Assembly: GCA_001776545.1 (NCBI GenBank) | Contig: MFBZ01000022.1 | Span: 14,065-78,064 of the forward strand | Reading direction: 5' to 3' | DNA length: 64,000 nucleotides | Source of the DNA: Candidatus Curtissbacteria bacterium RIFCSPLOWO2_12_FULL_41_16 | Lineage (GTDB): Bacteria; Patescibacteriota; Microgenomatia; Curtissbacterales; GWA2-41-24 | Shown here: one piece after another, positions 4,178 through 61,489 of the stretch | Layout of the letters: each line of letters opens with the position of its first letter | How positions within the stretch are numbered: the first letter of the stretch is position 1 | Position numbers and translations under genes: made by a program | The notes under the pieces: generated by a model | Told to the model about the DNA's origin: nothing | The model's database searches: none | Seen by the model: only the letters and a program-made list of their open reading frames with translations

Positions 4178-4232
4178 GAAACAATTGTAATTGTTAGATT
4201 GTTAGATTGCTATATTGTTAAATTGATTGAAA

Positions 4233-7552: not shown

Positions 7553-7831
7553 GACTACAGAGTACTAGAAATAACCTGGGATATCAAGACCCGTAAGGGG
7601 TTCTTTTTTGGGGGGGGGAGTAAGGCTTTTGAAGAGCGATGATCGACAGCGATCCTTTGTGTTGTTCAAAGCTACTTATTAACATACTTTTTGGCGGGTT
7701 GACAATTGTGGAAAAGTTTTGCGATTATAGAGTTTAGCTCTAAAATTTCAAAGATCTTCTTGGAGTTGATCTTCTTAAACACTTAGCCTGCTTAGAGCAA
7801 ATATTCAATTACTTAAAACTATTTTTAGGGG
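7553..7831. promoter_or_regulatory. rpmH-dnaA intergenic region: candidate oriC half / dnaA promoter
   Basis: It lies between divergently oriented rpmH and dnaA. It contains a DnaA-box-like TTGTGGAAA (~7703), several GATC sites and a G9 homopolymer (~7607-7616). Confidence 0.4.
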
Positions 7832-9190
7832 TTGTTTCATATGGAAGGCCAAAAAATTTGGGCCAGCATTCTAGCAGGCATCAAATCGCAGATTTCATCT
7901 TCAACGTTTAAAACCTGGTTTGCCGGTTCTTTTGTTTTGGACTACAAAAAAAATGATGGCGAGAATCTTTTGATTGTCGGCGTCAAGAATAATTTTCTCA
8001 AAGAACAAGTTGAGACTAGATATCAGCCAATAATTGATAAAACTGTTAAGAAAAATGGGTTTTTGCAAACAAGGGTAATTTTTGTAGTTTCCAAAAATGA
8101 TAGGCAGGAGGTATTGGGTAAAAACGAGCCACTATTTTCGGGCGTGGCACCAACTTATATTGGTATTTCTCGTAAAATTGATGGTCTTAATCCGAATCAC
8201 ACTTTTGAAAACTTTGTTGTCGGGTCTTCCAATAACTTAGCTTTTTTGGCTTTTAACCAGGTGGGGGGCAATTTGGGCTCAGTGTACAATCCACTTTTTG
8301 TTTATGGACCAACGGGTGTCGGTAAAACCCATCTCCTGCAGGCTTGCGGCAATGCTGTCCTTTTGGAAATCGTAGACGCTAAGGTTCTTTATGTCTCGGC
8401 AGAAAAATTTACAAATGATTACATAGAATCGCTCCGCGACAGAACCATGGCGGCTTTTCGCCAGAAATACCGAGGCGTCGACCTTCTCCTGGTTGACGAT
8501 GTCCAGTTTTTAGCCGGCAAAGAAAGTACGCAGGATGAATTTTTTTACACTTTTAATGAGCTCTATCTTTCGGGAAGACAGATTGTTCTGGCGGCGGATC
8601 GTCATCCCAGAGAGCTAGGAAGACTCAAGGAAAGATTAGTCAGCCGGTTTTTGGGTGGGATGGCGGTCGATGTCGCCAGACCCGACCTGGAGCTGCGTAC
8701 GGCAATTCTTAAGGCTAAGTGCAGAGAGAGGAAACTAAATTTAAATGATGAAATAATTGATTATATTGCGCGTCAATGCAGCAATGAAGTGCGAGAATTG
8801 GAGGGAGTTTTGGTGCAGGTTCTTTCTTTAATCCGGATTTCGGGTAAAATTTCTCTTTTGCAAATTAAAACGGCCATTGAAAGAGGCCGGAAAAATGTGG
8901 TTATAAAACCTGCGCCTGGTAAAATTATTGAGGCCGTGTCTCGTCATTTTAAAATTGCCAGCGGTGATATTTGTGGTTTGAGGCGAAAAGCAAGGTTGGT
9001 CCGTGCTAGACAAGTTTTAATGTACCTTTTAAGACAAGAGCTGGGCTTACCGCTTGGGGTTATTGGGGATCTTATTGGGGGTAGAGATCATTCGACTGTT
9101 CTTTACGGCATTGAGAGAGTTTCAAAAGAGATGGCAGCTGACCGGAGCAAGAATGATGAGGTTTTGCGAATTCGTTCTCTTTTCCAATAA
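7832..9190 (+). CDS. dnaA: Chromosomal replication initiator DnaA
   Basis: 452 aa with Walker A GPTGVGKTHL, AAA+ box LLLVDDVQFL and a C-terminal DNA-binding domain (RQVLMYLLRQELGLPLGVIGDLIGGRDHSTVLYGIERV). An alternative start is MEGQ at 7841. Confidence 0.9.
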   Translation: MFHMEGQKIWASILAGIKSQISSSTFKTWFAGSFVLDYKKNDGENLLIVGVKNNFLKEQVETRYQPIIDKTVKKNGFLQTRVIFVVSKNDRQEVLGKNEPLFSGVAPTYIGISRKIDGLNPNHTFENFVVGSSNNLAFLAFNQVGGNLGSVYNPLFVYGPTGVGKTHLLQACGNAVLLEIVDAKVLYVSAEKFTNDYIESLRDRTMAAFRQKYRGVDLLLVDDVQFLAGKESTQDEFFYTFNELYLSGRQIVLAADRHPRELGRLKERLVSRFLGGMAVDVARPDLELRTAILKAKCRERKLNLNDEIIDYIARQCSNEVRELEGVLVQVLSLIRISGKISLLQIKTAIERGRKNVVIKPAPGKIIEAVSRHFKIASGDICGLRRKARLVRARQVLMYLLRQELGLPLGVIGDLIGGRDHSTVLYGIERVSKEMAADRSKNDEVLRIRSLFQ

Positions 9191-9444: not shown

Positions 9445-10608
9445 ATGAAATTCAAGATACAACAAAACGATCTTCTAAAAACATTGCTTGCCGTCAATAG
9501 GTCTATTTTAGCGAAAACAAACCTCCCTATTCTTTCCGGTGTGTTAATTTCAACCTCTGGCGAGGTCCTTGAGGTTCTTTCTACAAACCTTGAAACAGCA
9601 GCCAGGGTGGGGGCTGTATGTAAAACCGAGACGACAGGCAAGGCGGTTCTTCCGGGGAGGATACTCTTGGAGTTTGTGTCGCAACTCCCAGAAGGAGAGG
9701 TTGTTTTTGAGAAGCTGGGCGAGGAAGTTTTAGTAAAACTAGGCAGCTATGGTGCGCGTTTTGCAACAATGCCAACTGAAGACTTCCCAGCAATTCCGAA
9801 GATTGAAAAAGGACAGACTATAAAATTTAGCGCCGGTGATTTTGTGAGGACGGTTTTAAAAGTTGCATTTTGTGCAGCGGCCGATGAAGGACGGCCGGTT
9901 TTAACCGGTGTTCTTTGCGAGCTTGAGAAGAATCTTCTTTCGATGGTAGCAACAGATGGTTACCGTTTAGGTTTCCAAAAAATAGCAACAACAGGAGAAG
10001 CAGTCCCTTTAAAAATTATTATTCCCTCAAAATCACTTATTGAGGCAGCAAAGCTTATTGGTGAGAGAACCGAGGGGAAAACAGATGAGAGCATAGAAAT
10101 GATTATTGCCGATGATTTTAACCAGGTTAACTTCCAGGTCGATAAACTGCCTAGCGCTAAGACAGGCGTCGAATTTACCTCGAGGCTTATTGAGGGCGAA
10201 TTCCCAAACTGGCAAAAGATCATCCCGACAAGTTTTAATTCACTCGCCAGAATTTCCAAAGAGGAGTTTATTAAATTGGTAAGAATCGCCTCAATCTTTG
10301 CTCGAGATTCCGGGAATATTATTAGACTTAAACTTGAGGGTCATGCGGCAAAGGGCGCTGGGTTAATGACCGTTTTTGCTACCAACAATCAGCTAGGATC
10401 AAACCAGGCTGCATGCGAGATAGAGATGACAGGTCGCGGCGGGGAAATCGCCTTTAATTTTCGTTATCTTTTGGAGATGCTCTCTTCGATTGAGGGGGAG
10501 GATGTCAATTTTGAAATGATTGAGAGTTTAAACCCGGGGAAGTTTACGGAAACAGATAGCAGGGACAACTTTTTCCATATAATTATGCCGGTGAGACTGC
10601 AAAGTTAG
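9445..10608 (+). CDS. dnaN: DNA polymerase III beta sliding clamp
   Basis: 387 aa with three clamp domains. It immediately follows dnaA. Confidence 0.9.
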   Translation: MKFKIQQNDLLKTLLAVNRSILAKTNLPILSGVLISTSGEVLEVLSTNLETAARVGAVCKTETTGKAVLPGRILLEFVSQLPEGEVVFEKLGEEVLVKLGSYGARFATMPTEDFPAIPKIEKGQTIKFSAGDFVRTVLKVAFCAAADEGRPVLTGVLCELEKNLLSMVATDGYRLGFQKIATTGEAVPLKIIIPSKSLIEAAKLIGERTEGKTDESIEMIIADDFNQVNFQVDKLPSAKTGVEFTSRLIEGEFPNWQKIIPTSFNSLARISKEEFIKLVRIASIFARDSGNIIRLKLEGHAAKGAGLMTVFATNNQLGSNQAACEIEMTGRGGEIAFNFRYLLEMLSSIEGEDVNFEMIESLNPGKFTETDSRDNFFHIIMPVRLQS

Positions 10609-19666: not shown

Positions 19667-19866
19667 GATTGCAATTGCTAGATTGTTACATTGCTAAATT
19701 GTTGAATTGTTTAAAAATAAGCAGAGCTTTTCTTCGAATAACAATCTAACAATGAAACAATATAACAATATCACCCTACCATATGAAACAAGGTGCGGAA
19801 AGTAGATCAAACAGCCTCAAAATAGGCAGATTTTCACAGATGGAGAGTTAGTGTGATTTGCTGGAA

Positions 19867-30029: not shown

Positions 30030-30140
30030 GTATAATTGCTACATTGCTACATTGCTACATTGTTTGGTTAAGTTTCTAAATTAAATAATGATGATGTTTT
30101 TCTAAAACAATTTAACAATGGAACAATTTAACAATTTCTA
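30030..30140. repeat. Intergenic 8-bp-period tandem repeat (ATTGCTAC)x3 plus a CAATTTAACAAT cluster
   Basis: attgctacattgctacattgctacattg, then acaatttaacaatggaacaatttaacaattt. It belongs to the (ATTGYTAN)n family seen at nine or more intergenic sites. Confidence 0.7.
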
Positions 30141-30142
30141 TC

Positions 30143-30487
30143 TTACTTTGGTATTTCGACTGTGGTGACATCGACGCCGGTGAGGCCAGCGATTAACTTA
30201 AGGATAAGCCAAGAGGCCACAACTAAAATGATGCCAATGACAGCCATGGTGAGGGTACTACGGGCCTGGCCGGCGGCTTTAGGATCGCCGCCTGAGGTGA
30301 CAAACTGGAAGCCGCCAACCAAAAGCATTACAAAAAAAGCAATACCGGCCGCCGGGGCCAGAAGCTTAATGATTCTTTGAAGAATATCCACGACATCCAA
30401 AAGCTTGGCTGGTGGTGGATCAGTTTGGGCATAGACAGGCGAAACAAAAGCTGTCAAAAGCCCAACCAAAGTTAAGAAAATCCGCAT
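30143..30487 (-). CDS. T4SS pilin-like small membrane protein (paralog 1)
   Basis: Start trimmed to MRIFLT (ATG at 30485-30487). Signal peptide, a hydrophobic helix, a TSGGDPKAAGQAR motif and a second hydrophobic helix, resembling TrbC/VirB2-like and CPR T4SS pilins. Confidence 0.55.
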   Translation of the reverse strand: MRIFLTLVGLLTAFVSPVYAQTDPPPAKLLDVVDILQRIIKLLAPAAGIAFFVMLLVGGFQFVTSGGDPKAAGQARSTLTMAVIGIILVVASWLILKLIAGLTGVDVTTVEIPK

Positions 30488-31319: not shown

Positions 31320-31356
31320 ATAACAATTTAGCCATTTAGCAATTTAACAATTTGTA

Positions 31357-33219: not shown

Positions 33220-33451
33220 TTTCAGTGTAGCATTAGATAGATAAATTGTTAAATTGTTACATTGCTAAATTGCCGAGTTGGCTATTTGAAGATTTCGGTT
33301 TCGAGAGATTTGGCAAAGGCTTACTTTTTCTCTTGGATATTGTTTTTTCAATTTTTCGTAGTTATTGCTCCCATATATGAATGTGTATGAATGTGTGAAT
33401 CATATCAAGAATCTAGTTTAACACAAAATTAGGCCATGGTATTAAATTGTG

Positions 33452-40814: not shown

Positions 40815-40861
40815 TAAATACAGATTATAAACTTAATGTAACACTTGAGCGGAGGAGAATG

Positions 40862-41259
40862 TGGAGATGGAGGGTTTTGAGCCCTCGTCCAAGATTACAA
40901 ATAAAAAACATCTACAAGCATAGTCCAAGCTAAAAGCTAGTCCGCCTGTGGCGGAAATCTTTAAAGTCTCGTTTGAATTTTTAGCCGATTGACGAGCGAA
41001 ACTCAAACAAAGATCGATAGCTTCGATTTTTAATCTGATCAGAATTAAGAATCTACTCCCGGCTGAGTTTGTGCCCCAATGGCTTCACCGAGAAAAAGCC
41101 AAAGAGACAGGTTCTTAAGCTTTATGCAAAAGCCAAAGCTGGTCGAACCGGTGCGACATCTCTGTCTGCACTTAATTTTGATTCAAAGTTTAACGCACTT
41201 TAGAATCGTGTTCGGCTTGCAGTTTTTAAAGTGCAATCCTGTCGAAACGATACATCCCC
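40862..41259 (-). ncRNA. ssrA: tmRNA (transfer-messenger RNA)
   Basis: The minus strand reads 5' GGGGATGTATCGTTTCGACAGGATTGCAC... at the 5' end and ...GGACGAGGGCTCAAAACCCTCCATCTCCA at the 3' end. The acceptor stem GGGGATG pairs with CATCTCC, with one G-U pair. A T-arm (GAGGG/CCCTC) and the conserved UUCGAC(A/G)GG 5' motif are present. The internal tag-like frame reads GCA CCG GTT CGA CCA GCT TTG GCT TTT GCA TAA, giving APVRPALAFA*. smpB lies 1.5 kb away. CCA is not encoded. Confidence 0.75.
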
Positions 41260-41417
41260 TCGTCGAAGCAAGGCTTTGCTTCGACGACCTTAGACCTTCG
41301 GTCTTTGGTCTAGCGCAAGCCTGCTTCTCCTCTCAAAAATTCTGACGAATTTTTGGAAGACTAGAAGGAATTTTAGCAGAAATTAGCTTCAAAATCAAGC
41401 GGCGATGTAATATAAAT

Positions 41418-43228: not shown

Positions 43229-44548
43229 TTATTGGATATTAAGTTGGCGGTCGATTAGCTTGAACCTTGAATTAACACCTTTGAGGATTTTGATGCGTTC
43301 TTCCGGGCTTCCAAACTGTAGTATGTGTAGTAAATAATCTCTCAACATATCAGTTTGTGTTTGGGTATATTCCATCTTGATTTGTGATCCAGCATTATTG
43401 TGAGGCGTCATTTCAAATCTTGATGATTGGTCAGACATCACTGCAAATTTGAGATTCTGTAATCTCTTAATTTCAATCTTGAATTCCTGCATGAGATATG
43501 AGGTATTCAGTCTTATTTCGGGAAGATAGCCGATTAGTTGTTTTATCAATTCTTGCTCGGTAATGTATGGCTCAGGACAATCATACTTTTTGATCCTGTT
43601 GCAATGGTAGTAAATATGGGAGTTTACGATATTTGCTCTTGTCCTCCTGTATTTAATCTCAGCAGTGACACTGCCGCCGCAGCTTCCGCAGATACATATT
43701 TTCTTAAAAGGGAATAATTGTTTATTCCATTGCCTCGGTGCGACCTGAAGCTGTATTTGCACCTTTTCAAAAGTCTGTTTTGATATTAGCGGTGGGTGAG
43801 TACCCTTATACCAGGTGTCCCCATACTTAAACTCACCGTAGTAAAAGGGGTTTTGCAGAACAAAGTATACTTTGCTAAGCGCCAGTCTGCAGCCGTTTTT
43901 GGTTGTAAATTTAACGTCATCAAGCCATTTTTTAACCATCCTGCCGGAAAATCCTTTGTATGCAACCTTGTAAAACATTTCCTTCACAACTGGTGCCCGT
44001 TCAGGATCAAGTTCTACTATTGATATCCGGTTTTCTTTAAGAATATTTTTGTAACCAATTGGTGCTACTCCTGGCCGAATGCCAATCTCGCACTTATTTC
44101 TAAGCCCCCGTTTTACATTTACTCCCCGGTTGTCGTTTTCTAGTTTGGCCTGAGAGCAGAGAATCATAAGTAGAAATTTCTCGTTTGGGTTATTACTAAA
44201 TGTTTGTGAGTAGGTTTTAATTTGAACCAGTTTCTCTTGATCCATCAAATCAACAATTTTTCCCAAATCTCCGGCATTTCTGCTTAAGCGGTCTGGTGCC
44301 CAAGTTATAATGCCGCTAAGTTCACCTTGCTCGATATCAATTAGGAGTTGGTTGAATACTGGCCTTTGCCCGGAGAGTTTTGCCGAATGGCTTTCTTCTC
44401 TAATTTCCTTAATATGTAAGCCTTCTCGGTTAGCCAAAGTCTGCATTTCCTTTATTTGAGAATCGATGCTCATTGCTTGTCTTTCATCAGATTCAGAAGA
44501 TTTGCGGGCATAGAGGCAATAGTTTATCTTTGGGCTTTGACTATCCAT
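43229..44548 (-). CDS. Large serine recombinase (resolvase N-terminal domain + recombinase domain + zinc ribbon)
   Basis: YARKSSESDERQAMSIDSQ catalytic-serine motif at the N-terminus. About 440 aa with a C-terminal Cys cluster (CICGSCGG...CNRIKKYDC). It lies directly downstream of a tRNA-Ser pair. Start trimmed to MDSQ. Confidence 0.8.
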   Translation of the reverse strand: MDSQSPKINYCLYARKSSESDERQAMSIDSQIKEMQTLANREGLHIKEIREESHSAKLSGQRPVFNQLLIDIEQGELSGIITWAPDRLSRNAGDLGKIVDLMDQEKLVQIKTYSQTFSNNPNEKFLLMILCSQAKLENDNRGVNVKRGLRNKCEIGIRPGVAPIGYKNILKENRISIVELDPERAPVVKEMFYKVAYKGFSGRMVKKWLDDVKFTTKNGCRLALSKVYFVLQNPFYYGEFKYGDTWYKGTHPPLISKQTFEKVQIQLQVAPRQWNKQLFPFKKICICGSCGGSVTAEIKYRRTRANIVNSHIYYHCNRIKKYDCPEPYITEQELIKQLIGYLPEIRLNTSYLMQEFKIEIKRLQNLKFAVMSDQSSRFEMTPHNNAGSQIKMEYTQTQTDMLRDYLLHILQFGSPEERIKILKGVNSRFKLIDRQLNIQ

Positions 44549-44721
44549 ATTCAGGGGTACAGAGTACCGCAATAAACATGGAAGTCTAGCTAGGGGAACT
44601 ACTATGGCCAATTGCGAAAGCCTCTCCTCTCGATAATCAAGCCTCTGTTTAGTATAATTCTGGCTCTAATATATGCTTGGCAAATAGATATTTAAAATCC
44701 GTTGATTGTTAAGGAGATTGA

Positions 44722-46023
44722 ATGCATAATGAAGTTGACATGCCTGGTCAAGGACAAAAAGAGATTCAGCTAGATGAGAATCAAAGAGAATTATCTCAAC
44801 GAGTTTTTCAAAGGGCAAGGCAATTAATACAAAAATTCGGAGAAGACTCTACTTGGGGTGAAAGTTTACCAAAAGAAGTAGTTTATCTAGATGTTGAAGA
44901 TTCTGGAGATAGACGAGGCAAAAATAGAATAGTGATTTGGGGAGATGGTGAAGGTGACAAAGTAATCATTTTTTACAATAAAACTTATTCGAAGGGTGTT
45001 TACTTAAATAATCAAGTTACTCTAAAGGACGGTGAGGTAGTAAGACATAATGCCGATATTGAAGATTGGCATGGCGACTCTCCAATTATTAATCCCCCGT
45101 GGCAAGAGCCACCTACACCTGAGATGGTAAAAGTCATGGGCTCCCGTTTTCACCCAGCAGAGTATTCTCACGGTTCACTTAACCTTTCTGAGATTGATAG
45201 ATTTTTATCAGAGGGTAAAGTGGTCTCGAATCCGAAAAAGGATCGAATAGTTGAAGAAGCTATAAAAAGATTAAGTGAGGTTGAGAAAGAAAGAGTGTTT
45301 GGCAAACCCCAAGATGCTGCCCAAAAAGCGAGAGATATATGGTCGGAAGAAGCGATTTTAAGAGATTTAGAAAGAATTAAAAGTTTACCAGAGGAAGAAC
45401 AAAGAGATGTTGAAGAAAGATTAGCCTTATCTTACGTAGAAGCTGCTTTTAAAGAGCTTTCCGCTATAAATTCCCTTGCCAACGACACTCCTGAAGCCGA
45501 AACAAGGCAAAGAATTTTGGATGAAGCAAGAGAGGCAATCAGACGAGAGAAGAAGTTTCATGTCCTAGCGAAGCAGCTTTCTAGAACTGTTTCCGGTGAA
45601 CCGATTGATTGGTCAAAGATCAAGCTTAGAGAGTTTGGCCGGATGTACGAGAGGCATGAGACTTCAGAGTATTGGCAACTTGCAAGACTCGTTTATAAAA
45701 AAGTAATCCAGCTTTCCGAAAAAGATGGCGATACAGCTATTCAAGCTGCGGCTACAATGGAGCTTGCAAGAGTGTTAGAAAAGTTGGGTAGTGACATTAC
45801 TGAAGTCGATAGACTTTATCAGTCTGCGCATCAACTTAATTGGGCTTCAAGAGGTGATAGAAACTACAATAGGCAGGTAACCATTGAAGGTAATATCTTA
45901 AGAAGAAATTTGAAAAAAGGGGATGTTGGTGGTACTTTAAACTCAGCTAAAAGTTTAGGCTGGATGCTGCTTCACGACCCCAAGCAGGCAATCGTACTAG
46001 GTAAGAAGGTTTTAGGTGGTTAA
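44722..46023 (+). CDS. Hypothetical protein (433 aa), island cargo
   Basis: No recognisable motif; charged and helical. A TPR-like gene follows 4 nt later. Confidence 0.4.
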   Translation: MHNEVDMPGQGQKEIQLDENQRELSQRVFQRARQLIQKFGEDSTWGESLPKEVVYLDVEDSGDRRGKNRIVIWGDGEGDKVIIFYNKTYSKGVYLNNQVTLKDGEVVRHNADIEDWHGDSPIINPPWQEPPTPEMVKVMGSRFHPAEYSHGSLNLSEIDRFLSEGKVVSNPKKDRIVEEAIKRLSEVEKERVFGKPQDAAQKARDIWSEEAILRDLERIKSLPEEEQRDVEERLALSYVEAAFKELSAINSLANDTPEAETRQRILDEAREAIRREKKFHVLAKQLSRTVSGEPIDWSKIKLREFGRMYERHETSEYWQLARLVYKKVIQLSEKDGDTAIQAAATMELARVLEKLGSDITEVDRLYQSAHQLNWASRGDRNYNRQVTIEGNILRRNLKKGDVGGTLNSAKSLGWMLLHDPKQAIVLGKKVLGG

Positions 46024-47553: not shown

Positions 47554-47887
47554 GTTAAAGCATTAAATATATCGAACTATATCAAATCTTAATTTGAGAC
47601 AAGCCCTTTTTATAATCGCTTGCGATTACATCGCGCGCTCTTGTAACGCAAGAGCGATATAGTGTCTCATTTGTCTCATTTAGCCTCGAAGATGAGACAC
47701 TAAACCTCTCCGATTTGGTACAATACCCATCGGGTGACTATGGGAGCGTTGGGTCCCAGACCCACATGCTCCGCCAAGCGAAGGAAGGTTCGTTCATAGT
47801 GCAAACGAAGTGCACTATGCTTCGCAAAGCGAACATCCTGCCGCCTCCGCTGAAGTGCCGTTTGCGACGGTTTGATTCTGCTACAAT

Positions 47888-48556
47888 TTGGCTGTGAAAC
47901 TCTTGCTTACATCTTCCGGCTTCAGAAATAAGTCTATTGCCAAGGCTCTTGCAGACTTAGTTGGCAGATCTTTTGCTAAAACAAATTTGGCATTTATTCC
48001 TACTGCCGCAAATGTGGAGGAGGGTGACAAGTGTTGGTTGATTGATGACTTAACGAACTGTAAGAAACTTGGATTTAAGATGATAGATATTGTAGACATT
48101 TCTGCCATAGCTAAAGAACTTTGGGAGCCAAGATTAAGTGCTGCAGATGTTTTGATGTTTGGGGGAGGAAATACTTTTCATTTAATATACTGGATTCGAA
48201 AGTCTGGGCTGGAGAAACTTCTACCCCGTTTACTCAAACAGAGGGTGTATGTGGGAATTAGCGCTGTAAGTATGGTCACGAGCAAAAGAATCCTTCTAAG
48301 TGAATCCAAGAAGCTATACTATGAGGACCTGAAAGGTCATCAGGACGAAAGAGGGCTTGGTTTTGTAAGTTTCCAGATTCGGCCACATCTGAATAATAGC
48401 TTTTTCCCAAATGTAAAAGAAGAAATTTTAAAAGAACAGGCGAAAAAGATTCCGGAGCAGATTTATGCTCTTGATGACGAGATGGCAATTAAGGTTGAAG
48501 ATAAGAACATCGAGGTTGTAGGAGAAGGTAAGTATTTACTGCTTAATGTAAGTTAA
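47888..48556 (+). CDS. Peptidase S51 (dipeptidase E / cyanophycinase-like) family protein
   Basis: 222 aa with LLLTSSGF at the N-terminus and FGGGNTFHL..., resembling the S51 Ser-His-Glu triad context. Confidence 0.55.
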   Translation: MAVKLLLTSSGFRNKSIAKALADLVGRSFAKTNLAFIPTAANVEEGDKCWLIDDLTNCKKLGFKMIDIVDISAIAKELWEPRLSAADVLMFGGGNTFHLIYWIRKSGLEKLLPRLLKQRVYVGISAVSMVTSKRILLSESKKLYYEDLKGHQDERGLGFVSFQIRPHLNNSFFPNVKEEILKEQAKKIPEQIYALDDEMAIKVEDKNIEVVGEGKYLLLNVS

Positions 48557-48778
48557 ATCGATGAACCGCACGTGGGAGCTTTACCCGCCCGAATTTTTGA
48601 GGCTGCCAGCTCGGGTGCTATCCCTCCGGGTAGGTGAATTGAAAACCCGCAAATAGTATAATCTATACTCACTCGAACGGTGACTGGTTGCAGAGCGATT
48701 TGCTCTAATTGCTCTCGGAAAAAAGTTCCAACATAGTCAACTAGGCACCGCCGAAGCCCTATAACATTTGACTTCCTA

Positions 48779-49606
48779 GTGTGGGTTAAGTATAATTCGC
48801 ATATGTCGTCAGTTGAAAGAGGTTTTATACCAATAACTGAAGCCCAAAGCGAACGAGTCCGATTCCAGGTTGGTTTACCTGATTTTGTGGACCAAGACAG
48901 GATTGGGGTGAATCTTCGTGAGATTCAGAGGCTGTGCCAAATCGGGGGAATTCACAGGCTTGTGGTTCTTGGTGTTGAAGATTTAGATACTTCCAAGACT
49001 GTGCCTCAAATACTTGGTTTTAATAGCCAAGGTTCTACCTACATGGGGAAAGCCGCCTCTAAGGCTGATGTGTCACCATCAGAAAGTTTTTCTGCACCGG
49101 GGTGGGAAGGTAAAAGTCATCCACAACAGTGGTCAGATGCACTCATTGCTGTCAATATGAACCAAGTAAGAGATAGAATTGGAAATGACAAGAGATGGAG
49201 TGAAGGAATTCGTTCTCCAAAAGCATGGTCGCATTATTTGAACAGAGGTATAAAAGATGGGATTTCAAAAGAGGGGATTGCTCAATTGCTAAACTTGAGA
49301 AATAAAGTTGATTTGGCTATTTTTGCTGCTTTTGTCGGTGCTGCTGCAACAGATGCGGTTCCGCTACCGCGGTGGTTTGACCCACACATACCGAGTGTTC
49401 GCGAGGCTATACAAGCCTACTTTACATGGTCCATAACGTGGAATGTTATAGAGAGGTTCATGGATGGCAAGAGGCCTTTCCTAAGTGATGGGAATAATAG
49501 ATACACCGCCTTCTACGGGCCTGAAGTTGATAGGGCTGTACTCCTCAAGGTTCTTACTAAAACTAGAACGCTGGTAAAGCAAATTGAAGGTCAAGCAACA
49601 CAATAA
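48779..49606 (+). CDS. Hypothetical protein (275 aa)
   Basis: No known motif. Preceded by a repeated ~120-nt upstream module. Confidence 0.35.
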   Translation: MWVKYNSHMSSVERGFIPITEAQSERVRFQVGLPDFVDQDRIGVNLREIQRLCQIGGIHRLVVLGVEDLDTSKTVPQILGFNSQGSTYMGKAASKADVSPSESFSAPGWEGKSHPQQWSDALIAVNMNQVRDRIGNDKRWSEGIRSPKAWSHYLNRGIKDGISKEGIAQLLNLRNKVDLAIFAAFVGAAATDAVPLPRWFDPHIPSVREAIQAYFTWSITWNVIERFMDGKRPFLSDGNNRYTAFYGPEVDRAVLLKVLTKTRTLVKQIEGQATQ

Positions 49607-49879
49607 TTCCCTAAAATTGTATAATCTATACTCGAACGGTGACTGGTTGAAGGGCAATTTGTTCTAATTGCTTTTGGAAAAAAGTTCCAACATAGTCAAA
49701 CAGACACCGCTTGTTAAAACTAAACTTTGCTTATCGCCGAGCCTGACTCGGCTTATCGCAAGTTTGTTTTTCCTCTTCAAAATCGCAAGCGATTTTGAGA
49801 TTTTTACTCTTCTCTTTTAAAATTCATTCCGGCAATTTTGATAGTTGTTTTGTGATAAACTTGTAGTTGGATAGTTTTT

Positions 49880-50455
49880 ATGCCCAAGTTTCATAAAACA
49901 GATCATCATGAGGATCATCATACGGGGAGAATTCTCTCCAAAGAAGAACTTGACGCAAAGCATGCGGCAGCACTTGAGGCCAAAGCGATTATTTCCTGGA
50001 AATCTCCGGAGAGAATTTTTAAGGCAAGATCCAAAAAGTATTTTACCAAGGTCGCTCTCTATGGGTTGATTTTTGTGCTGGCGGCAATTGCTTTTGGCGA
50101 GTTTTTCCTGGTAGGGGTAATTATTGCGGTGGTTTTTGTGGTTTATGTTTTGGCGACGGTTGCGCCACACGTTATCGAGCATAAGATTACCAATATGGGC
50201 ATTATCTCCGGGGGACGGGCGTTTTTGTGGGAAGAGCTGGACTCTTTTTGGTTTGATAAGCGCGGCGATGACAGGCTTTTGGTGGTTGCGACTAATTTAC
50301 ATTTCCCGACTCGCTTGATTATTCTGTTAACGACTGTTTCCGAGCGGACACTCCTAGATATTTTGGAAAAACATATCCATTTTCATCATGGCCCGGTGCA
50401 CACGCTTTTTGACAAATGGGCCAATTCGCTACAGAAGAGAATTAACCTCGAGTAA
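49880..50455 (+). CDS. Hypothetical membrane protein (191 aa)
   Basis: Two TM helices in the centre. Preceded by copies of the R2 and R3 modules. Confidence 0.35.
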   Translation: MPKFHKTDHHEDHHTGRILSKEELDAKHAAALEAKAIISWKSPERIFKARSKKYFTKVALYGLIFVLAAIAFGEFFLVGVIIAVVFVVYVLATVAPHVIEHKITNMGIISGGRAFLWEELDSFWFDKRGDDRLLVVATNLHFPTRLIILLTTVSERTLLDILEKHIHFHHGPVHTLFDKWANSLQKRINLE

Positions 50456-50617
50456 AAATTCAATTGTTAAATTGTTTCATTGTTGAATTGTTAGACTGTT
50501 TTGAGTATCTAGTTCCCTTGTAGTAAAATTCCACTGGGTGCTTGTAGTTTCCGCCAGAGGCGGATCAGCCCATGGGTTCTGAGATCCTCAGGATCGAATG
50601 ACCTTTGGCTGACATTT

Positions 50618-51099: not shown

Positions 51100-51965
51100 C
51101 TAGGTTTGCGTTTCTTTAAGCCTGTATTGTTCCGGTGACATTTTCAGTCTTGTATGGATTCTTGCCCTGTTGTAGTAGTTGATTGTTAAATGGATTGCCG
51201 CAATGAACTCACCAAGCGTATCGAATCTGTTAAACTCAAGACCTAAATCAGTCTTAAAGTTGTTGTAGAAAGACTCCTGAAAACCATTTTCCCAAGGTGA
51301 TGATTTGGCGCTCATGGATATTTGAATACCCAGTGAATTAAGGAACTTCGTGTACTCTTTTGATGTGTACTCTGATCCTTGATCGGTATGGATAATTCTG
51401 GGCAAGCTGCCCAGCGTCTTTATCGCATCTACAATCGCCTCAATTACCATTTCTTTAGTATGTCTTGCGGCAACAAACCAACCCACAATTTCCCTGGTTA
51501 CCAGATCCATATATGTTGCCAGGTATACTACCTTTGAAAAGTAGATCATGTGGGTAAAATCTCCAACCAAGACTGTACCGGGTATAATCGGGCAGGTACC
51601 TTTGATTAGGTTTTGATATGGCGCTGGAGCTTTTTTCAAATCCCTTCTTTTCGTCCATCTGGCCTTCCTTTTGTATGGCTTTATGTTATACAGCTTCATT
51701 ACTCGACTCGCCTTACCCTTTTCTTGCCAAGGGAAAGGGCAAGAGCTATTCTTCTGTGGCCATAAGCGGGATTGAGAGCCAAAGTTGATAGAATCTGCTC
51801 CCTTAAAAGTTCATCCTGACGGATTCTGGCTTGGCTATTGGTTTTATATGTTGTTGATCTGGATATTTTAAGAAGACGGCAGAGGAAGGTATGACCAAGG
51901 CTTTTGACCTTAGACTGGATTAAAGCGAGGATTTCCCTTCTTTTTTTTTGACTTCTCAAGTTCAA
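51100..51965 (-). pseudogene. IS3-family transposase OrfB, interrupted (two ORF pieces in different frames)
   Basis: Piece 51699..51965 ends in RRVE, followed by TAATG. Piece 51100..51699 continues with the integrase core. Together the two pieces resemble a full IS3 OrfB. Confidence 0.55.
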
Positions 51966-52182
51966 AGGTTAATACTCCAATGATCTGTTTGAGCTGCGAG
52001 TTTTCATTTTTTAGCCTGTTATACTCAAGGAGGCTGATTGTACCCATGGCTTTTCGAGATAGCCAGGTGTAGATGGTTTTCTCGCTGACTCCATACTGGG
52101 CAGCAACTGCTGCTACTTTCTCGCCGCTCTTTACTTTTGTAAGTATTTCGGCCTTAACTTCGGGATTAACCGGTTTAAACAT
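51910..52182 (-). CDS. IS3-family transposase OrfA (HTH)
   Basis: 90 aa with an HTH segment (AAQYGVSEKTIYTWL) and a leucine-zipper-like C-terminus. Confidence 0.7.
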   Translation of the reverse strand: MFKPVNPEVKAEILTKVKSGEKVAAVAAQYGVSEKTIYTWLSRKAMGTISLLEYNRLKNENSQLKQIIGVLTFELEKSKKKKGNPRFNPV

Positions 52183-52797: not shown

Positions 52798-53179
52798 TAC
52801 TGTATATACAATATATGTATATATTACTATAATGTTCAGTATTTTGTCAATGATCCGCAACCAGCAGTAAGTAAGAAGAAATGAGACACCCTTTTTTACA
52901 GTGTCACATTTGTTCCATTTAGCCTCGCACGTGAGACACCATGTTCTGAAGATTTGATACAATACGATGGTTAGGAGTAGTGGGGACTATAGGAGCGCTG
53001 GGCTCCAGACCCACGTGCTCCGCTCGTCGAAACAAAGCTTTGCTTGTCGCCGAGTCTGACTCGGCTTAGCGCAAGCTTGTTTCTCCTCTTCAAAATTGCT
53101 TCGCAATTTTGAGATTTTTCTTGTTTCGTAGAATTTTCCTAAATCTGGTAAAATCCCATTGTGCCGATTAAGCGGATTT

Positions 53180-53581
53180 TTAGCTCTCAAGGCGTTTGAT
53201 TTGAGAAAATTTGTCAAAATCGTGATCAAAAGAATAGATTTCTTTGATTTTTTTCTTCTGCATTAAAGCGATATGGTAAGCATCGATAAAACTGATGTTT
53301 TGTTCCATGTAGAAAGTAAAAATTCCCGGAAGTAGTTTGTAATTTTCTATGATAATGTTTGGAATTTGTCCAATAGCAATCATTTTATCAGTTATCTCTT
53401 TTTTGGGAAGTTTGTAAGATCTTTCTAAAGTAAAGATTACCTCCGAAAGCGTTAAAAGACTGATGAAGACTTTATTTTTTTCTTGCTCGATCTTTTTAAA
53501 GATTGTTTTAGTCTTGGATGAAAGTATAGGGTCATCGTCCAAAATAAATCGGAGAATAATATTAGTATCAAGAAGAATCAT
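53180..53581 (-). CDS. vapC: PIN-domain toxin VapC (second copy)
   Basis: 133 aa with an MILLDTNIILRF N-terminus and conserved acidic residues. Overlaps the antitoxin by 4 bp. Confidence 0.7.
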   Translation of the reverse strand: MILLDTNIILRFILDDDPILSSKTKTIFKKIEQEKNKVFISLLTLSEVIFTLERSYKLPKKEITDKMIAIGQIPNIIIENYKLLPGIFTFYMEQNISFIDAYHIALMQKKKIKEIYSFDHDFDKFSQIKRLES

Positions 53582-53901
53582 CGATTAGTTTTTGAAAGAG
53601 TTCCAAGCTGACGGAGTATTTTACGGTCTCTTTCAACGGCTGCTTTTGGCCACGCCTGTTCTTCCCATTTGATCAATTTTTGACCAGTAAGTTTCGGTTT
53701 AATTTTAGGTTTTAGCGAGCCGTAGAGGGACATTATTGAGAAACGTTTGGCGGTTTTCACTTTAACCTCTTTCTTTTTAGTGACAATGAATCTTACTTGA
53801 TCGCCACGTTTCAAGCCGAGCACTTTGCGTACTTGGGCCGGAATAGTTACTTGGCCTTTTTGAGTTATAGTCGTAGGTTGTACTTGCATGGTAATACCCA
53901 A
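53578..53901 (-). CDS. AbrB/MazE-family antitoxin (VapB-like)
   Basis: The N-terminal swapped-hairpin segment (TITQKGQVTIPAQVRKVLGLKRGDQVRFIV) is followed by a basic tail. Upstream partner of the PIN toxin. Confidence 0.6.
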   Translation of the reverse strand: MGITMQVQPTTITQKGQVTIPAQVRKVLGLKRGDQVRFIVTKKKEVKVKTAKRFSIMSLYGSLKPKIKPKLTGQKLIKWEEQAWPKAAVERDRKILRQLGTLSKTNR

Positions 53902-53954
53902 ATTTTAGTATTACTAATGCTGATTGTCAATAGACCTTCTAAATCTGTTAAAAT

Positions 53955-54518
53955 TTGCCTGTCATGGCGATTAAGAGGATTTTTAGTGCTGGAGGAATTG
54001 TTATCAGACCCTTAGGCTACGATCCCGTTTCGAAATTTGACGAAACGGGATCGGGAAAAGAGGCTGAAAAGTGGGAGGTTTTGGTGACTCAGCATTCCAA
54101 ACATAAAGGCTGGGATTTTCCCAAAGGCCATCGGGAAATTTATGAATCGGAGGAGCAAACGGCTCTGCGGGAGGTTGAGGAAGAAGCTGGTGTTAAGGCG
54201 GAAATTATCGAGAGGGTTGGCCAAACGCAGTATTTCTACTGGGAAACGGAAGAGCCCGTCTTCGCCCCTTCGACCCTTCGGTTATACTCAGGGCCATTGG
54301 CTTCGCTCAGGGCTACGGTGGGGAAAGAAAAGGTATTAAAAACTGTTGCTTATTATTTGATGAAGTACGTTGGAGAAGGAGAAGCTACAACTGCTTTTGA
54401 GGTTAGTGCTAAAGTTTGGCTACCAATTGATAAGGTTGAGGAGAAATTGACATTTAAGGATACCAAGGAATTGTGGGAGAAGGCGAAAATCAAGATAGAA
54501 GCGATCAGTGACAAGTGA
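53955..54518 (+). CDS. NUDIX hydrolase
   Basis: Nudix box GHREIYESEEQTALREVEEEAGV. The coding sequence contains an embedded copy of a short GC-rich repeat (~54262-54312). Confidence 0.7.
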   Translation: MPVMAIKRIFSAGGIVIRPLGYDPVSKFDETGSGKEAEKWEVLVTQHSKHKGWDFPKGHREIYESEEQTALREVEEEAGVKAEIIERVGQTQYFYWETEEPVFAPSTLRLYSGPLASLRATVGKEKVLKTVAYYLMKYVGEGEATTAFEVSAKVWLPIDKVEEKLTFKDTKELWEKAKIKIEAISDK

Positions 54519-59409: not shown

Positions 59410-61197
59410 ATGTACATTCTTGGGATTTCCTGTTTTTATCATGAGTCGGCAGCTTGCCTTTTAAAAGATGGAAAAGTGGTAGCGGCCAGCGCTGAGGAGC
59501 GGTTTAGTCGCAAAAAACATGACAGTGAATTTCCGAAATTGGCGGTGGGGTTTTGTCTTAAAAAAGCGGGAATTACCGCCGCTGATCTTGATTTTGTGGT
59601 TTTTTACGAAAAGCCTTTTTGGAAATTTTCCAGAATTTTACTTTCTACTTTGGTCTCGTGGCCTTTGGCTTTCCGGCTTTTCGCTAAAGCAATGATTACT
59701 TGGATTTCCGGCAAGCTTTGGGTGAGATCGATTATTGGTGAGGAGTTGAGGGTTGACGTAAAAAAGATTTTGTTTGTGCCTCATCATGTTTCGCACGCGG
59801 CGGCGAGTTTTTATCCTTCAGGTTTTCGTGAAGCGGCGATTTTAACTTGCGATGCGGTAGGGGAATGGACTACAACAACGCTGGGGTTTGGTGAAGGAAC
59901 AAATATAAAGATTGAAAAAGAAATTAAATTTCCACACAGTTTGGGACTTTTGTATTCGGTCTTTACGGCATTTTTGGGATTTGAGGTAAACGACGGCGAG
60001 TACAAAGTTATGGGTATGGCGCCGTATGGCAAACCAAAGTATCTGGATCGGGTCAAGAAACTGGTCAAGGTTTATCCGGACGGCTCGTTTTCTTTGAAAA
60101 TGGAGTATTTTAAGTTTCATAAGTCGGTAGAGTACGCTTACGGCGAAAAGTTTGTCGAGCTTTTCGGCAATCCGAGGACCCGCGATTTGCACTTTTTTAC
60201 AAAGGGCTCCGGTTATCCTTCTTACTTTGGAGAAAGACCTGAGAACTATAAAGAGCTTTGCGGGTTGAATCAGAAGTATGCCGATATTGCTGCTTCCATC
60301 CAGGCGTTTACAGAGGAGACAATTTTGAAGTTGGCTGATTATGTACATCAGCAGACCAAGATGGAAAATCTGTGCATCGGCGGCGGCGTTGGATTAAATA
60401 GCGTGGCCAACGGTTTGCTCTTGAGGCGCGGGCCTTTTAAGCGGATTTTTGTGCAGCCGGCGGCGGGGGATGACGGCGGAAGTATTGGAGCGGCTTTGTA
60501 TGTTTATCATCAGATATTGGGTAAAAGACGAATCTTTGTTCAGGATAATTGTTATTTCGGGGCTGAATTTGGTGAGGCTGAGATTGAAAGTTTTCTTAAA
60601 AAGAAGCGAGTTAAGTACAGAAAAATTGGGACTGAGGAAAAGTTAGTTGACTATCTATCTGGCGAGATTGTTTCCGGGAAAGTTGTCGGTTTTTTCCACG
60701 GGAGAGCGGAGTGGGGTCCGCGGGCACTTGGAGCAAGATCAATAATTGCTGATCCGAGGCGGGAGGAAATGAAGGAGATAGTCAATACAAAAATAAAATT
60801 CAGGGAACCTTACCGGCCTTTTGCGCCGGTAGTTTTGGCTGAATATGCAGGCGATTATTTTGAGGTCGATGGATTGGCACACGAGGATTTAACTAAATTT
60901 ATGCTGGGTGTGTTTCCGGTGAAGAAGTCAGCAAAGAAAGTGATTCCGGCAGTGACTCATGTGGACGGGAGCGGCCGGCTACAGATAATAAGACGTGATC
61001 AAAACGCCCGCTACTACGATTTGATTAAGCGCTTCGGGGATTTGACGGGAGTCTACGTTTTGATGAATACCTCTTTTAATTTAAAAGGTGAACCGATTGT
61101 CAATTCGCCCGAGGATGCTTTGAATACTTTTTCAAAATCGGGCCTCGACATTTTGGCGCTGGAGAGATATATTGTTTTGAAAGAAGATGTTAAGTAA
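59410..61197 (+). CDS. Carbamoyltransferase (NodU/CmcH/TobZ family)
   Basis: 595 aa with an N-terminal MYILGISCFYHESAACLLKDGKVVAASAEERFSRKKHD segment and a C-terminal YrdC-like/Kae1-like arrangement, typical of the family. Confidence 0.75.
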   Translation: MYILGISCFYHESAACLLKDGKVVAASAEERFSRKKHDSEFPKLAVGFCLKKAGITAADLDFVVFYEKPFWKFSRILLSTLVSWPLAFRLFAKAMITWISGKLWVRSIIGEELRVDVKKILFVPHHVSHAAASFYPSGFREAAILTCDAVGEWTTTTLGFGEGTNIKIEKEIKFPHSLGLLYSVFTAFLGFEVNDGEYKVMGMAPYGKPKYLDRVKKLVKVYPDGSFSLKMEYFKFHKSVEYAYGEKFVELFGNPRTRDLHFFTKGSGYPSYFGERPENYKELCGLNQKYADIAASIQAFTEETILKLADYVHQQTKMENLCIGGGVGLNSVANGLLLRRGPFKRIFVQPAAGDDGGSIGAALYVYHQILGKRRIFVQDNCYFGAEFGEAEIESFLKKKRVKYRKIGTEEKLVDYLSGEIVSGKVVGFFHGRAEWGPRALGARSIIADPRREEMKEIVNTKIKFREPYRPFAPVVLAEYAGDYFEVDGLAHEDLTKFMLGVFPVKKSAKKVIPAVTHVDGSGRLQIIRRDQNARYYDLIKRFGDLTGVYVLMNTSFNLKGEPIVNSPEDALNTFSKSGLDILALERYIVLKEDVK

Positions 61198-61489
61198 TTG
61201 TTATATTGCTATATTGTTAAATTGTTAAATTGTTAAAGAACAATAAGCGAAGCTTTTCTTTGAATAAAAAAATTCAACAATCTAACAATTGAAATTATGC
61301 GGTTTTTTAAATCATTTTTTTCAAGAGGTTCAGAAGCAAGAGACTTAATTGAGTTTTTGTGGAAGGCAAAACTTTGGTTTTTGATTCCTTTTGTGGCGGT
61401 GCTTTTATTATTTGGGTTCCTTCTGATTTTTGCCCAGGCTACAGGTGTCGCCCCTTTTATCTACACCCTTTTTTAGTCAAAGAGGAAAT

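Follow-up and report, generated by a model that had tools for sequence, protein, structure and literature searches.

The stretch of DNA analysed here, the window, comprises 64,000 nucleotides of Candidatus Curtissbacteria bacterium RIFCSPLOWO2_12_FULL_41_16 (contig MFBZ01000022.1, positions 14,065 to 78,064). Its DnaG shows 100% identity to a protein of that bacterium. It carries two copies of a repeat, R1, both on the + strand and each in an intergenic gap (47554–47887 and 52798–53179). Just upstream of copy 1 ends the gene of an AadK-like nucleotidyltransferase (PF04439; 46744–47553, +), and 3' of it lies a peptidase S51 gene with a box of its own (TGCTACAAT, 47879) and a GTG start at 47894 that appears leaderless. 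The unit headed by copy 2 is followed, on the other strand, by a vapBC pair. The two copies form direct repeats that enclose 5.2 kb of DNA, in which lie an IS3-type transposase and brnTA. R1 is real and conserved; as to its function, we infer that it belongs with transfer RNA (tRNA)-like processing elements or with small RNAs having their own promoter. The parts of the two copies, and what directly follows each, are these:

47567–47776, + strand: R1 copy 1
47567–47584, + strand: left-flank motif ATATATCGAACTATATCA (TATATCA twice), which accompanies R1 in most relatives
47595–47601, + strand: first GAGACA site of copy 1 (TGAGACA), then a T-rich stretch
47612–47660, + strand: optional palindromic mini-insertion of copy 1 with two perfect hairpins, inserted between TTTTTATA and ATAGTG; not in copy 2 or many relatives
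47661–47701, + strand: operator-like core of copy 1 (AGTGTCTCAT, TTGTCTCAT, CATTTAGCCTCG, ATGAGACACT), inverted 10-mers with 21 nt between
47716–47724, + strand: extended -10 box of copy 1, TGGTACAAT; predicted transcript start ~47731
47725–47742, + strand: leader of copy 1, with a small variable hairpin CCCATCGGG (47726–47734) and a conserved GACTAT linker (47736–47741)
47743–47776, + strand: minihelix R1b of copy 1, GGAGCGT-TGGGTC-CCA-GACCCA-C-ATGCTCC (helix 47743–47772), then GCCA
47777–47852, + strand: M1 unit after copy 1, like the 3' half of tRNA-Ser (GGTTCG ... ATCCTGCCGCCTCCGC), with a two-hairpin motif (47793–47834) in the T-loop
47857–47877, + strand: weak terminator-like hairpin GCCGTTTGCGACGG, then TTTGATT, which would close the copy 1 unit
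52881–53023, + strand: R1 copy 2
52881–52940, + strand: operator-like region of copy 2 (TGAGACA at 52882, degenerate AGTGTCAC at 52900, CATTTAGCCTCG at 52916, GTGAGACAC at 52931)
52955–52963, + strand: extended -10 box of copy 2, TGATACAAT; predicted transcript start ~52970
52964–52991, + strand: leader of copy 2, GACTAT at 52985–52990
52992–53023, + strand: minihelix R1b of copy 2, GGAGCGC-TGGGCT-CCA-GACCCA-C-GTGCTCC (helix 52992–53021), then GC
53024–53125, + strand: R3 after copy 2 (TCGTCG, a long covarying hairpin, TTCTCCTCTTC, an intrinsic terminator at 53089–53113 and TTTTT)

An earlier note on this DNA had proposed the repeat at these two places, and the proposal was borne out. In a MAFFT alignment 47594–47775 pairs with 52881–53024; the repeat finder returned the same regions as family D13, with a 43-nt core of 84% identity (47658–47700 versus 52897–52939); and the hairpin part at 47736–47774 aligns with 52985–53023. 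Two 19-mers of the hairpin, CCAGACCCACATGCTCCGC and GACTATGGGAGCGTTGGGT, occur twice each in the window at up to three mismatches and not once in 100 window shuffles. The match thus goes beyond the short chance matches to which a pairwise alignment might have reduced it. Homology extends leftwards to GAGACA(A/C)...CCCTTTTT at 47595 and 52882, where copy 1 has a 49-nt insertion. The shared strings quoted in the note were correct, except that copy 2 has gatacaata, not (t/g)gtacaata, and tgggctccag, not tgggtcccag. Its description of the gaps as free of open reading frames (ORFs) also stands: those present are mechanical and unconserved. A protein-coding R1 was rejected, as only such mechanical ORFs are found, the indels are not multiples of three, and the downstream sequence is unrelated between copies.

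Read across copies, R1 opens with the TATATCA-AAC-TATATCA motif, TGAGACAC, a T-rich stretch and the optional insertion of 45–49 nt; it continues with ATAGTGTCTCAT TTGTCTCAT TTAGCCTYG, 4 nt, TGAGACAC, ~11 nt and GATTTG(A/G)TACAAT, and closes with a variable small hairpin, (G)ACTAT, the 30-nt hairpin R1b, a G and then a C. Conservation ends two bases 3' of the R1b hairpin. There is also a short variant without the TACAAT segment, in which GACTATAG (TATAAT in L001) stands directly after GAGACAC; it was seen in L001, L016, L019/L023, L035 and L040, the L numbers denoting loci that were compared with the window.

A genome-wide copy count had also been suggested in the earlier note, and the outcome speaks against a genome-wide repeat. 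The exact 24-base R1a pattern (CATTTAGCCTCG, 4 nt, TGAGACAC; diverged copies such as that of L030 are missed by it) was found at 2 loci in representative genomes and at 25 metagenome loci. Contigs of 350–560 kb have one exact match each, and the 64-kb window and one 47-kb contig have two each. Among loci fetched without reference to R1, five carry the full cassette (L030, L028, L034, L037, L038) and three the operator-like part only (L035, L039, L040). The loci are syntenic with the window, with smpB, tRNA-Ser (gct, tga, cga, gga), tRNA-Arg (gcg, ccg), a NUDIX gene, brnTA, dnaG and rpoD in common. Because each long contig has a single pattern match and the loci are syntenic, R1 is a low-copy cassette of Curtissbacteria (one to three per genome) at syntenic positions, at the head of tRNA/dnaG-rpoD units, in about 30 related loci, and no dispersed repeat. 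It is not a phage or plasmid element either, since the exact R1a scan of viral contigs and BLAST searches of phage and plasmid collections with R1 gave no match. Nor did the literature searches find a description of it.

These data bear on the idea that R1 is a mobile or formerly mobile miniature element without host function, akin to a miniature inverted-repeat transposable element (MITE) or to BOX. Its modular make-up (R1, R3, M1 and a further repeat, D4), the optional hairpin insertions, the tandem copies in L002 and the R1 fragments elsewhere in the loci could all be accommodated in this way. Yet each 350–560-kb contig has a single exact R1a match (by a pattern that misses diverged copies), positions are syntenic, and the element is kept across relatives whose neighbouring protein is only 37–48% identical; it lacks both terminal inverted repeats and target duplications of its own and is absent from phage, plasmid and viral collections. 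We consider this origin highly improbable. The only part of R1 that looks MITE-like is the 45-nt inner insertion, which is present in copy 1, L001, L007/L017, L011, L020, L022 and L030 and absent in copy 2 and the rest.

The insertion (45–49 nt) holds two hairpins, in copy 1 GCGAT-TAC-ATCGC (47622–47634) and GCTCTTG-TAACG-CAAGAGC (47637–47655), within an outer ATCGC/GCGAT stem. It was seen at 47612–47660 in the window and at 7620–7668 and 8380–8424 in L017, only ever within R1 copies or R1 fragments, and its arms show a compensated indel (GCGAT/ATCGC versus GCAGAT/ATCTGC). All three perfect hairpins that the earlier note saw in copy 1 are there. As to hairpins being conserved in R1, the R1b hairpin is indeed kept, whereas the two small ones belong to the optional upstream insertion and the GTGTCTCAT/ATGAGACAC pair looks like protein-binding DNA.

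The downstream half of R1 is the hairpin R1b, 30 nt long, with a 7-bp stem (GGAGCGU/AUGCUCC), a bulged C and a second stem of 4–6 bp, and after it a G that never varies and a C that almost never does. This fold is the minimum-free-energy structure in both window copies. In 17 distinct copies 90.5% of the cells are paired, as opposed to 19–50% when the 3' partners are slid by 1–3 columns. Three pairs show compensatory changes, one of them U-A in copy 1 and C-G in copy 2. The structure analysis suggested in the earlier note thus came out in favour of the hairpin, but covariation lends it modest support, as there is so little sequence change. A G.U pair kept in 14 of the 17 copies, and a U.G at another pair in 5 copies, both fit the + strand only. 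L034 has a 12-bp helix with three G.U pairs and its register shifted by one.

R1b has the size of a tRNA acceptor/T-arm minihelix, namely a 7-bp acceptor-like stem plus a T-like stem, ~12 bp together. Its unpaired G and C stand where a tRNA has its discriminator and the next base, and GCCA is encoded in copy 1, L002b and L014. The first four pairs (G1-C72, G2-C71, A3-U70, G4-C69) and the tail G73, C74 match those found in tRNA-Ser genes of these genomes. Some copies have T-loop-like loops: TTCCAGA in L008, L011, L030 and L034, TTCGACA in L019/L023 and TTCAAAT in L037. Among 50 distinct tRNA genes, the best local alignments of R1b were all to tRNA-Ser 3' halves, in register end to end (20/27 identity with tRNA-Ser(cga)). 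A covariance model of R1b, run over 343 kb, recovered every R1b copy; its other matches were a partial copy in L028, an antisense match to L020/L026 and five tRNA-Ser 3' ends in register. R1b is, by structure, a tRNA-like minihelix and not a tRNA. None of R1, R3, D4 and M1 in the window matched an Rfam 15 family, whether at the gathering threshold or at expectation values (E) up to 10, and L001 and L002 were free of family matches throughout.

The upstream half of R1 behaves differently. GAGACAC occurs three or four times in each R1, in both inverted and direct orientation; in copy 1 the arms GTGTCTCAT (47662–47670) and ATGAGACAC (47692–47700) are 21 nt apart, upstream of the -10 box. The sites are conserved in sequence even where the neighbouring protein is 37–48% identical (L034, L035, L037, L039, L040), and changes in one arm go uncompensated in the other (seen in L034 and L035), with insertions falling between the sites. 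A reading of the R1a inverted repeats as RNA helices was rejected on these grounds. Because the sequence is kept without compensatory change and lies upstream of a -10 box, the GTGTCTCAT/ATGAGACAC pair looks like protein-binding DNA, and the upstream half is probably a DNA-level control region whose GAGACAC sites bind a protein.

A candidate for this protein, judged by gene position, is an orphan of ~190 aa whose gene is the divergent neighbour of R1 in at least 10 loci. The same holds for L034 and L037/L038, which are distant; in L035 the gene is found upstream of R1 and points the same way. The window does not encode it. The family has 123 members, all from Patescibacteria, and is all-helical, with an AlphaFold predicted local distance difference test (pLDDT) score of 90; Pfam, PHROG, PDB and BFVD gave no match. 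Its genes were placed as follows:

L002 169–741: orphan ~190-aa protein gene
L030 9166–9747: the same
L028 6456–7025: the same
L034 4001–4576: the same
L037 3001–3576: the same
L035 4001–4504: the same

Both window copies then carry TGnTACAAT, an extended -10 box in which TG precedes the hexamer: TGGTACAAT at 47716 and TGATACAAT at 52955. Essentially every long variant has kept TTTG(A/G)TACAAT, even at loci with a neighbouring protein of 47–48% identity. Boxes of the TGnTAnAAT type (TGGTAAAAT, TGGTATAAT, TGCTAAAAT) also precede the tRNA-Ser genes of the window, at 9–16 nt, and its transfer-messenger RNA (tmRNA) gene, and in L007/L017 the last element of the R1 upstream half is TGGTAAAAT, 13 nt ahead of a tRNA-Ser 5' end. 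GAGACAC itself was rejected as a -35 box, since its spacing to the -10 box is 19 nt and inconstant. Two further stretches, GAGACACTA(T/A)A (47692–47703) and GACTAT(A/G)GGAG (47736–47748), recall the core of SP6/T7 phage promoters (GACACTATAG, CACTATAGGGAGA). SP6/T7 promoters at GAGACACTATA/GACTATAGGAG were rejected and the likeness treated as probably due to chance, since a single-subunit RNA polymerase is not known here and no gene for one was seen.

What follows R1b varies among relatives: dnaG-rpoD, tRNA genes, ORFs, R3, M1 or M2, a tRNA-Ser(gga)-like pseudo-element. The clearest comparison is between L004, where R1 precedes M2, and L028, where tRNA-Ser(gga) does; from the shared CTCCGC onwards the two are 100% identical over 145 nt. 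The same alternation is found at dnaG: R1 stands ahead of it in L030, L015/L007 and L008/L013, and in L029, L031 and the window tRNA-Ser(gga) does so. L029, L030 and L031 come from a sample of dnaG upstream regions drawn blind to R1: in L030, R1 stands directly before the dnaG ATG; in L029 the order is promoter-tRNA-Ser(gga)-tRNA-Arg(ccg)-dnaG; and in L031 it is promoter-tRNA-Ser(gga)-R3-dnaG. In several relatives the dnaG ATG is only 3–13 nt 3' of the R1b helix. On account of the L004/L028 swap and these arrangements, R1 with its minihelix is the positional equivalent of a promoter with tRNA-Ser(gga). The tRNA-Ser(gga)-tRNA-Arg pair of the window was compared with L020/L026 by eye, a case weaker than that of L004/L028.

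In the window itself, inserted DNA separates both copies from dnaG, and to judge from predicted signals at both ends each now looks like a noncoding unit in its own right, ~150 nt long. The copy 1 unit has a weak terminator (47857–47871, 6 pairs, then TTGATTCTGC) and the copy 2 unit a strong one within R3 (53089–53113, 11 pairs, then ATTTTTCTTG); the predicted transcripts are more stable than shuffles (z -2.7 and -4.2, respectively). The suggestion in the earlier note of a promoter plus small RNA unit thus found partial backing, in the conserved -10 box, a hairpin that fits the + strand and the terminators, while the perfect hairpins and the palindrome that it pointed to lie upstream of the predicted promoter. 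The IS3-type transposase ORFs between the copies (51100–52182, minus) lie between tRNA-Ser(cga) and brnTA; ORF 51100–51699 has rve integrase-core domains, with shorter transposase ORFs upstream of it.

R3 directly follows copy 2, as had been noted (53020–53130), and recurs at 49707–49806 and 41257–41357, always on the + strand. It consists of TCGTCG, a long hairpin with a covarying stem, TTCTCCTCTTC and a CAAAAT...ATTTTG hairpin, and is conserved among Curtissbacteria (L028 ~9012–9100, L031 ~9894–9990, L032 9841–9941). That it is the module upstream of tmRNA is correct inasmuch as the copy at 41257–41357 abuts the 5' end of the tmRNA gene (40859–41259, minus), but it lies antisense to tmRNA, and in relatives R3 meets acceptor-stem ends in either orientation. 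Throughout, R3 abuts such an end. Where the neighbour is a tRNA-like element on its own strand, R3 meets the 3' end; where it is a gene on the other strand, namely tmRNA in the window and tRNA-Ser(gga) in L028 and L032, it meets the 5' end. The tmRNA promoter (TTGATT, 17 nt, TAAAAT; ~41398–41370, minus) would give a leader of ~100 nt of antisense R3.

M1 is a real, undescribed structured RNA motif. At 47793–47834 it has two hairpins (ATAGTGCA...GCACTAT and a covarying second hairpin), and RNAalifold gives 14 pairs, 5 of the 14 with compensatory changes. It always lies between GGTTCG and ATCC...CCGC, which is the T-loop position of a tRNA-Ser-like 3' half; in relatives, an M1 unit usually comes straight after a genuine tRNA-Ser gene, whose 3' strand it reproduces. 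Sites of M1 outside the window, and of M2 (GGAGGGATGAGAAGTTTACC, a hairpin, TCGAAGGGAATCCCTCCCTCTCCGC; it comes after tRNA-Ser(gga) in L028 and after R1b in L004), are:

L005 6198, 7598 and 8637; L017 4346; L009 1495; L028 5642; L029 7363; L032 3304 and 6665: M1
L004 3490–3632; L028 8781–8920 (minus); L009 11459–11531; a similar one in L001 ~1170–1235: M2

A further repeat, D4, flanks ORF 48803–49606 with two copies of 81 nt that are 89% identical (48671–48751 and 49630–49710). Each has its own TATAAT box; its fold is a three-way junction with the closing stem GGTGACT.../...AG(G/A)CACC, and its last letters, CACCGC(C), resemble those of tRNA-Ser genes. R3 directly follows the second.

The variety of sequence 3' of R1b also bears on the possibility that R1b, with what follows, acts in cis as a leader, be it attenuator, riboswitch-like sensor or decoy binding tRNA or protein, which tunes read-through from the R1 promoter into downstream genes and is no processing site. 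The position of R1 immediately 5' of dnaG in several relatives would suit a leader, as would R3 after copy 2, which ends in a terminator-like hairpin and whose outer stem covaries among relatives; in L031 the R3 between tRNA-Ser(gga) and the dnaG ATG leaves no room for a further promoter, so that read-through must be possible. On the other side, R1b has entirely different downstream partners, or none. No alternative (anti-terminator) pairing was found, Rfam gave no match even at E up to 10, and the R1b helix has no conserved internal loops of the kind that form ligand pockets. We regard a leader as improbable.

The reading that we favour, tentatively and with a confidence that falls a little short of even, is that R1 combines a promoter with a tRNA-type processing module or a small RNA. 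In this proposal, a protein would bind the three or four GAGACAC(TATA) sites and control the extended -10 promoter (TTTGnTACAAT). The transcript would start ~7 nt after the box and comprise the short variable hairpin, the (G)ACUAU linker and the 30-nt minihelix. Ribonuclease P (RNase P) would cut at the 5' G of the minihelix and the tRNA 3'-end pathway would act at its 3' end; these steps are proposed because acceptor/T-arm minihelices are established substrates of RNase P and of the CCA-adding enzyme. The minihelix would then serve as punctuation: a small stable RNA would be released, and the downstream RNA, which could be tRNA genes, M1-type RNAs or the dnaG-rpoD mRNA, would be detached from the leader and given a defined 5' end. 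In relatives a real tRNA-Ser(gga) would fill the role of the minihelix at the head of the same operon. In the window, the copy 1 unit would be made up of minihelix, M1 and weak terminator, and the copy 2 unit of minihelix and R3 with its strong terminator.

Several observations weigh against this proposal. First, the RNA evidence has its limits: each compensatory change in R1b is found in a single sequence only, the hairpin being too conserved for strong covariation; the shuffle control for paired cells reached only 21/500; and there are C.A mismatches near the loop. Second, the likeness to tRNA is partial. The loops of the window copies and most others are TCCCAGA, CTCCAGA or CCCCAGA, not the canonical 7-nt T-loop (UUCRANY), the alignment scores with tRNA-Ser are just above the 95th percentile of shuffles, and neither ARAGORN nor the Rfam tRNA model (RF00005, E up to 10) found a tRNA at either R1 copy. 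Third, a scan for two-hexamer sigma-70 promoters flagged neither R1 site, because no -35 is present (there is no usable hexamer 16–18 nt upstream), and the distance from GAGACAC to the -10 box is inconstant, 18 nt in most copies and ~38 nt in L034. Fourth, some copies are chimeric or broken. In L037/L038 (2779–2818, minus) the left half of R1b is joined to the canonical T-loop and 3' strand of tRNA-Ser(gga), by which the helix is broken; L028 has an orphan 3' half of R1b (TTGGTTCCAGACCCACATGCTCCGC, 7969–7999, minus) downstream of an HNH endonuclease gene; and L017 has a left half of R1 beyond brnTA. Fifth, serine recombinase genes lie near R1 in several loci.

The chimera, the fragments and the recombinase genes fit a role in recombination at the DNA level at least as well. 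Thus, R1b might mainly act as DNA, a quasi-palindromic recombination site or hot spot of the attachment (att) type derived from the T-arm/3' end of tRNA-Ser, on which the large serine recombinase of the locus or another integrase acts; R1 would mark the junctions and its promoter drive whatever lands downstream. On this account it is understandable that sequence changes abruptly right after CTCCGC, with varied partners beyond, that R1 and tRNA-Ser(gga) are exactly exchanged at CTCCGC between L004 and L028, that the chimera has its breakpoint in or beside the loop, that the window copies are direct repeats around 5.2 kb, that toxin-antitoxin cassettes beside R1 are flanked by duplications of 55–100 bp, and that the window (43229–44611), L004, L007/L017, L034 and L037/L038 all have large serine recombinase genes no more than a few kb away. 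It accords poorly with other facts. In nearly all copies homology spans the whole hairpin and ends at its 3' end, not at a central dinucleotide, where a crossover by a serine recombinase should end it; the G.U pairs are strand-specific (14 of 17 copies at one pair, three pairs in L034); the window has no orphan half-sites; R1 is syntenic across relatives in which the neighbouring protein is only 37–48% identical; and the conserved G-C after the helix and the promoter at a tRNA-like distance are left unexplained. On balance we find recombination as the main role unlikely, though it is the chief rival of our proposal. We would note that the RNA and DNA readings of R1b are not exclusive, as tRNA genes are themselves both RNA genes and recombination targets.

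Taken further, R1 could head a platform for gene capture and rearrangement, integron-like yet built of other parts, upstream of the essential dnaG-rpoD operon. It would comprise the orphan 190-aa gene, often a nearby large serine recombinase, and an outward promoter, with R1b both transcribed and used as a recombination junction; toxin-antitoxin pairs, tRNA genes, tRNA-Ser-like RNAs (M1, M2, D4) and small genes would be the cargo that is inserted, swapped and expressed. We think such a platform quite doubtful as a whole.

Some features of the neighbourhood are recorded here in their own right. The large serine recombinase gene of the window (43229–44611, minus) encodes Resolvase, Recombinase and Zn_ribbon_recom domains, and between its start and the 3' end of tRNA-Ser(tga) there are 217 nt. 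In L004 and L007/L017 homologues occur near R1 or tRNA-Ser genes, and in L034 and L037/L038 other serine recombinase genes occur near R1. The vapBC pair (53180–53901, minus) is flanked by an imperfect duplication of ~55 nt (53139–53200 versus 53939–54000), the duplicated segment being the promoter (TG(G/T)TAAAAT) and first codons of the NUDIX gene 53955–54518; brnTA in L017 is flanked by a duplicated left half of R1 (7560–7672). Several genes seem leaderless, with a TATAAT/TGnTAnAAT box ending 6–9 nt before the ATG at 48803, the GTG at 47894 and the ATG at 53964. A 433-aa protein (44722–46023, +) has a weak match, below cutoff, to the N-terminal domain of tRNA intron endonuclease (E 0.005). 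Arrays with an 8-bp period (AATTGTTA and variants) are intergenic and occur on both strands. The boxes and the arrays are at:

48768–48805, 47879–47896 and 53946–53966: boxes of the seemingly leaderless genes
4187–4237, 19671–19774, 30032–30148, 31322–31356, 33242–33292, 50452–50510 and 61186–61252: 8-bp-period arrays

Promoters, small RNAs and RNA processing are, to our knowledge, almost uncharted in candidate phyla radiation bacteria, which cannot be grown alone. New for this group would be a 30-nt mimic of the top half of a tRNA, in the place of a tRNA gene at the head of a primase/sigma-factor operon, and, if our proposal holds, a first concrete promoter/operator architecture and a natural case of tRNA-type punctuation by a minimal helix. 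The locus also holds the undescribed structured RNA motifs M1 (in a T-loop), R3, M2 and D4 and an orphan protein family linked to R1. Were the recombination reading true, tRNA-like sequences would organise genome plasticity beside essential genes in very small genomes.

Among known systems, R1b comes closest to tRNA minihelices and tRNA-like domains such as that of tmRNA, the YrlA-type bacterial Y RNAs and the eukaryotic mascRNA. Like these, it would form a coaxial helix of ~11–13 bp, and it shares the 7-bp acceptor-like stem, the short T-like stem-loop, the unpaired G-C (GCCA in copy 1) and a promoter shortly upstream. It differs in having no D, anticodon or variable arm, a T-like stem that is one pair short, a bulged C, a mostly non-canonical T-loop and no Rfam match. 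A second parallel is with tRNA-headed operons, as in E. coli tRNA-tufB or the tRNA-Ser(gga)-tRNA-Arg(ccg)-dnaG-rpoD units of L029, L031 and the window, where R1 fills the slot of promoter plus tRNA-Ser(gga) and, by analogy, may likewise be cut from the primary transcript. A minihelix of 30 nt cannot decode, however, and the long upstream repeats are absent from the ordinary tRNA promoters of the window.

The comparison with recombination systems is divided in the same way. With the sites of tRNA-targeting integrases and the att sites of large serine recombinases, R1 shares a copy-like version of a tRNA 3' half, a homology break at a tRNA-like 3' end, chimeric or partial copies, nearby recombinase genes and a palindrome of 30–40 bp. 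Unlike them, it keeps complementarity of its 5' strand with strand-specific G.U pairs, has its own promoter, and has most breakpoints off the palindrome centre: one chimera (L037/L038) breaks in or beside the loop, all other copies after the 3' end of the hairpin. Modular repeats such as BOX of Streptococcus pneumoniae, REP/BIME and Correia likewise have hairpin modules, a varying intergenic order and some promoter- or terminator-like parts, but come in tens to hundreds of copies, whereas R1 has one to three per genome, syntenic and tied to one neighbouring gene. R1 as an integron attC was rejected, since GTTGGGT fits the R' motif in copy 1 only. Set beside the integron as a whole (integrase, Pc, attI and promoterless cassettes), the R1 locus shares a divergent conserved gene, an outward promoter, a structured site and variable cargo a few nucleotides on; it differs in that it has neither a tyrosine integrase nor attC, that its neighbour is an orphan helical protein of 190 aa, and that its cargo consists in part of core genes (dnaG, rpoD) and tRNAs.

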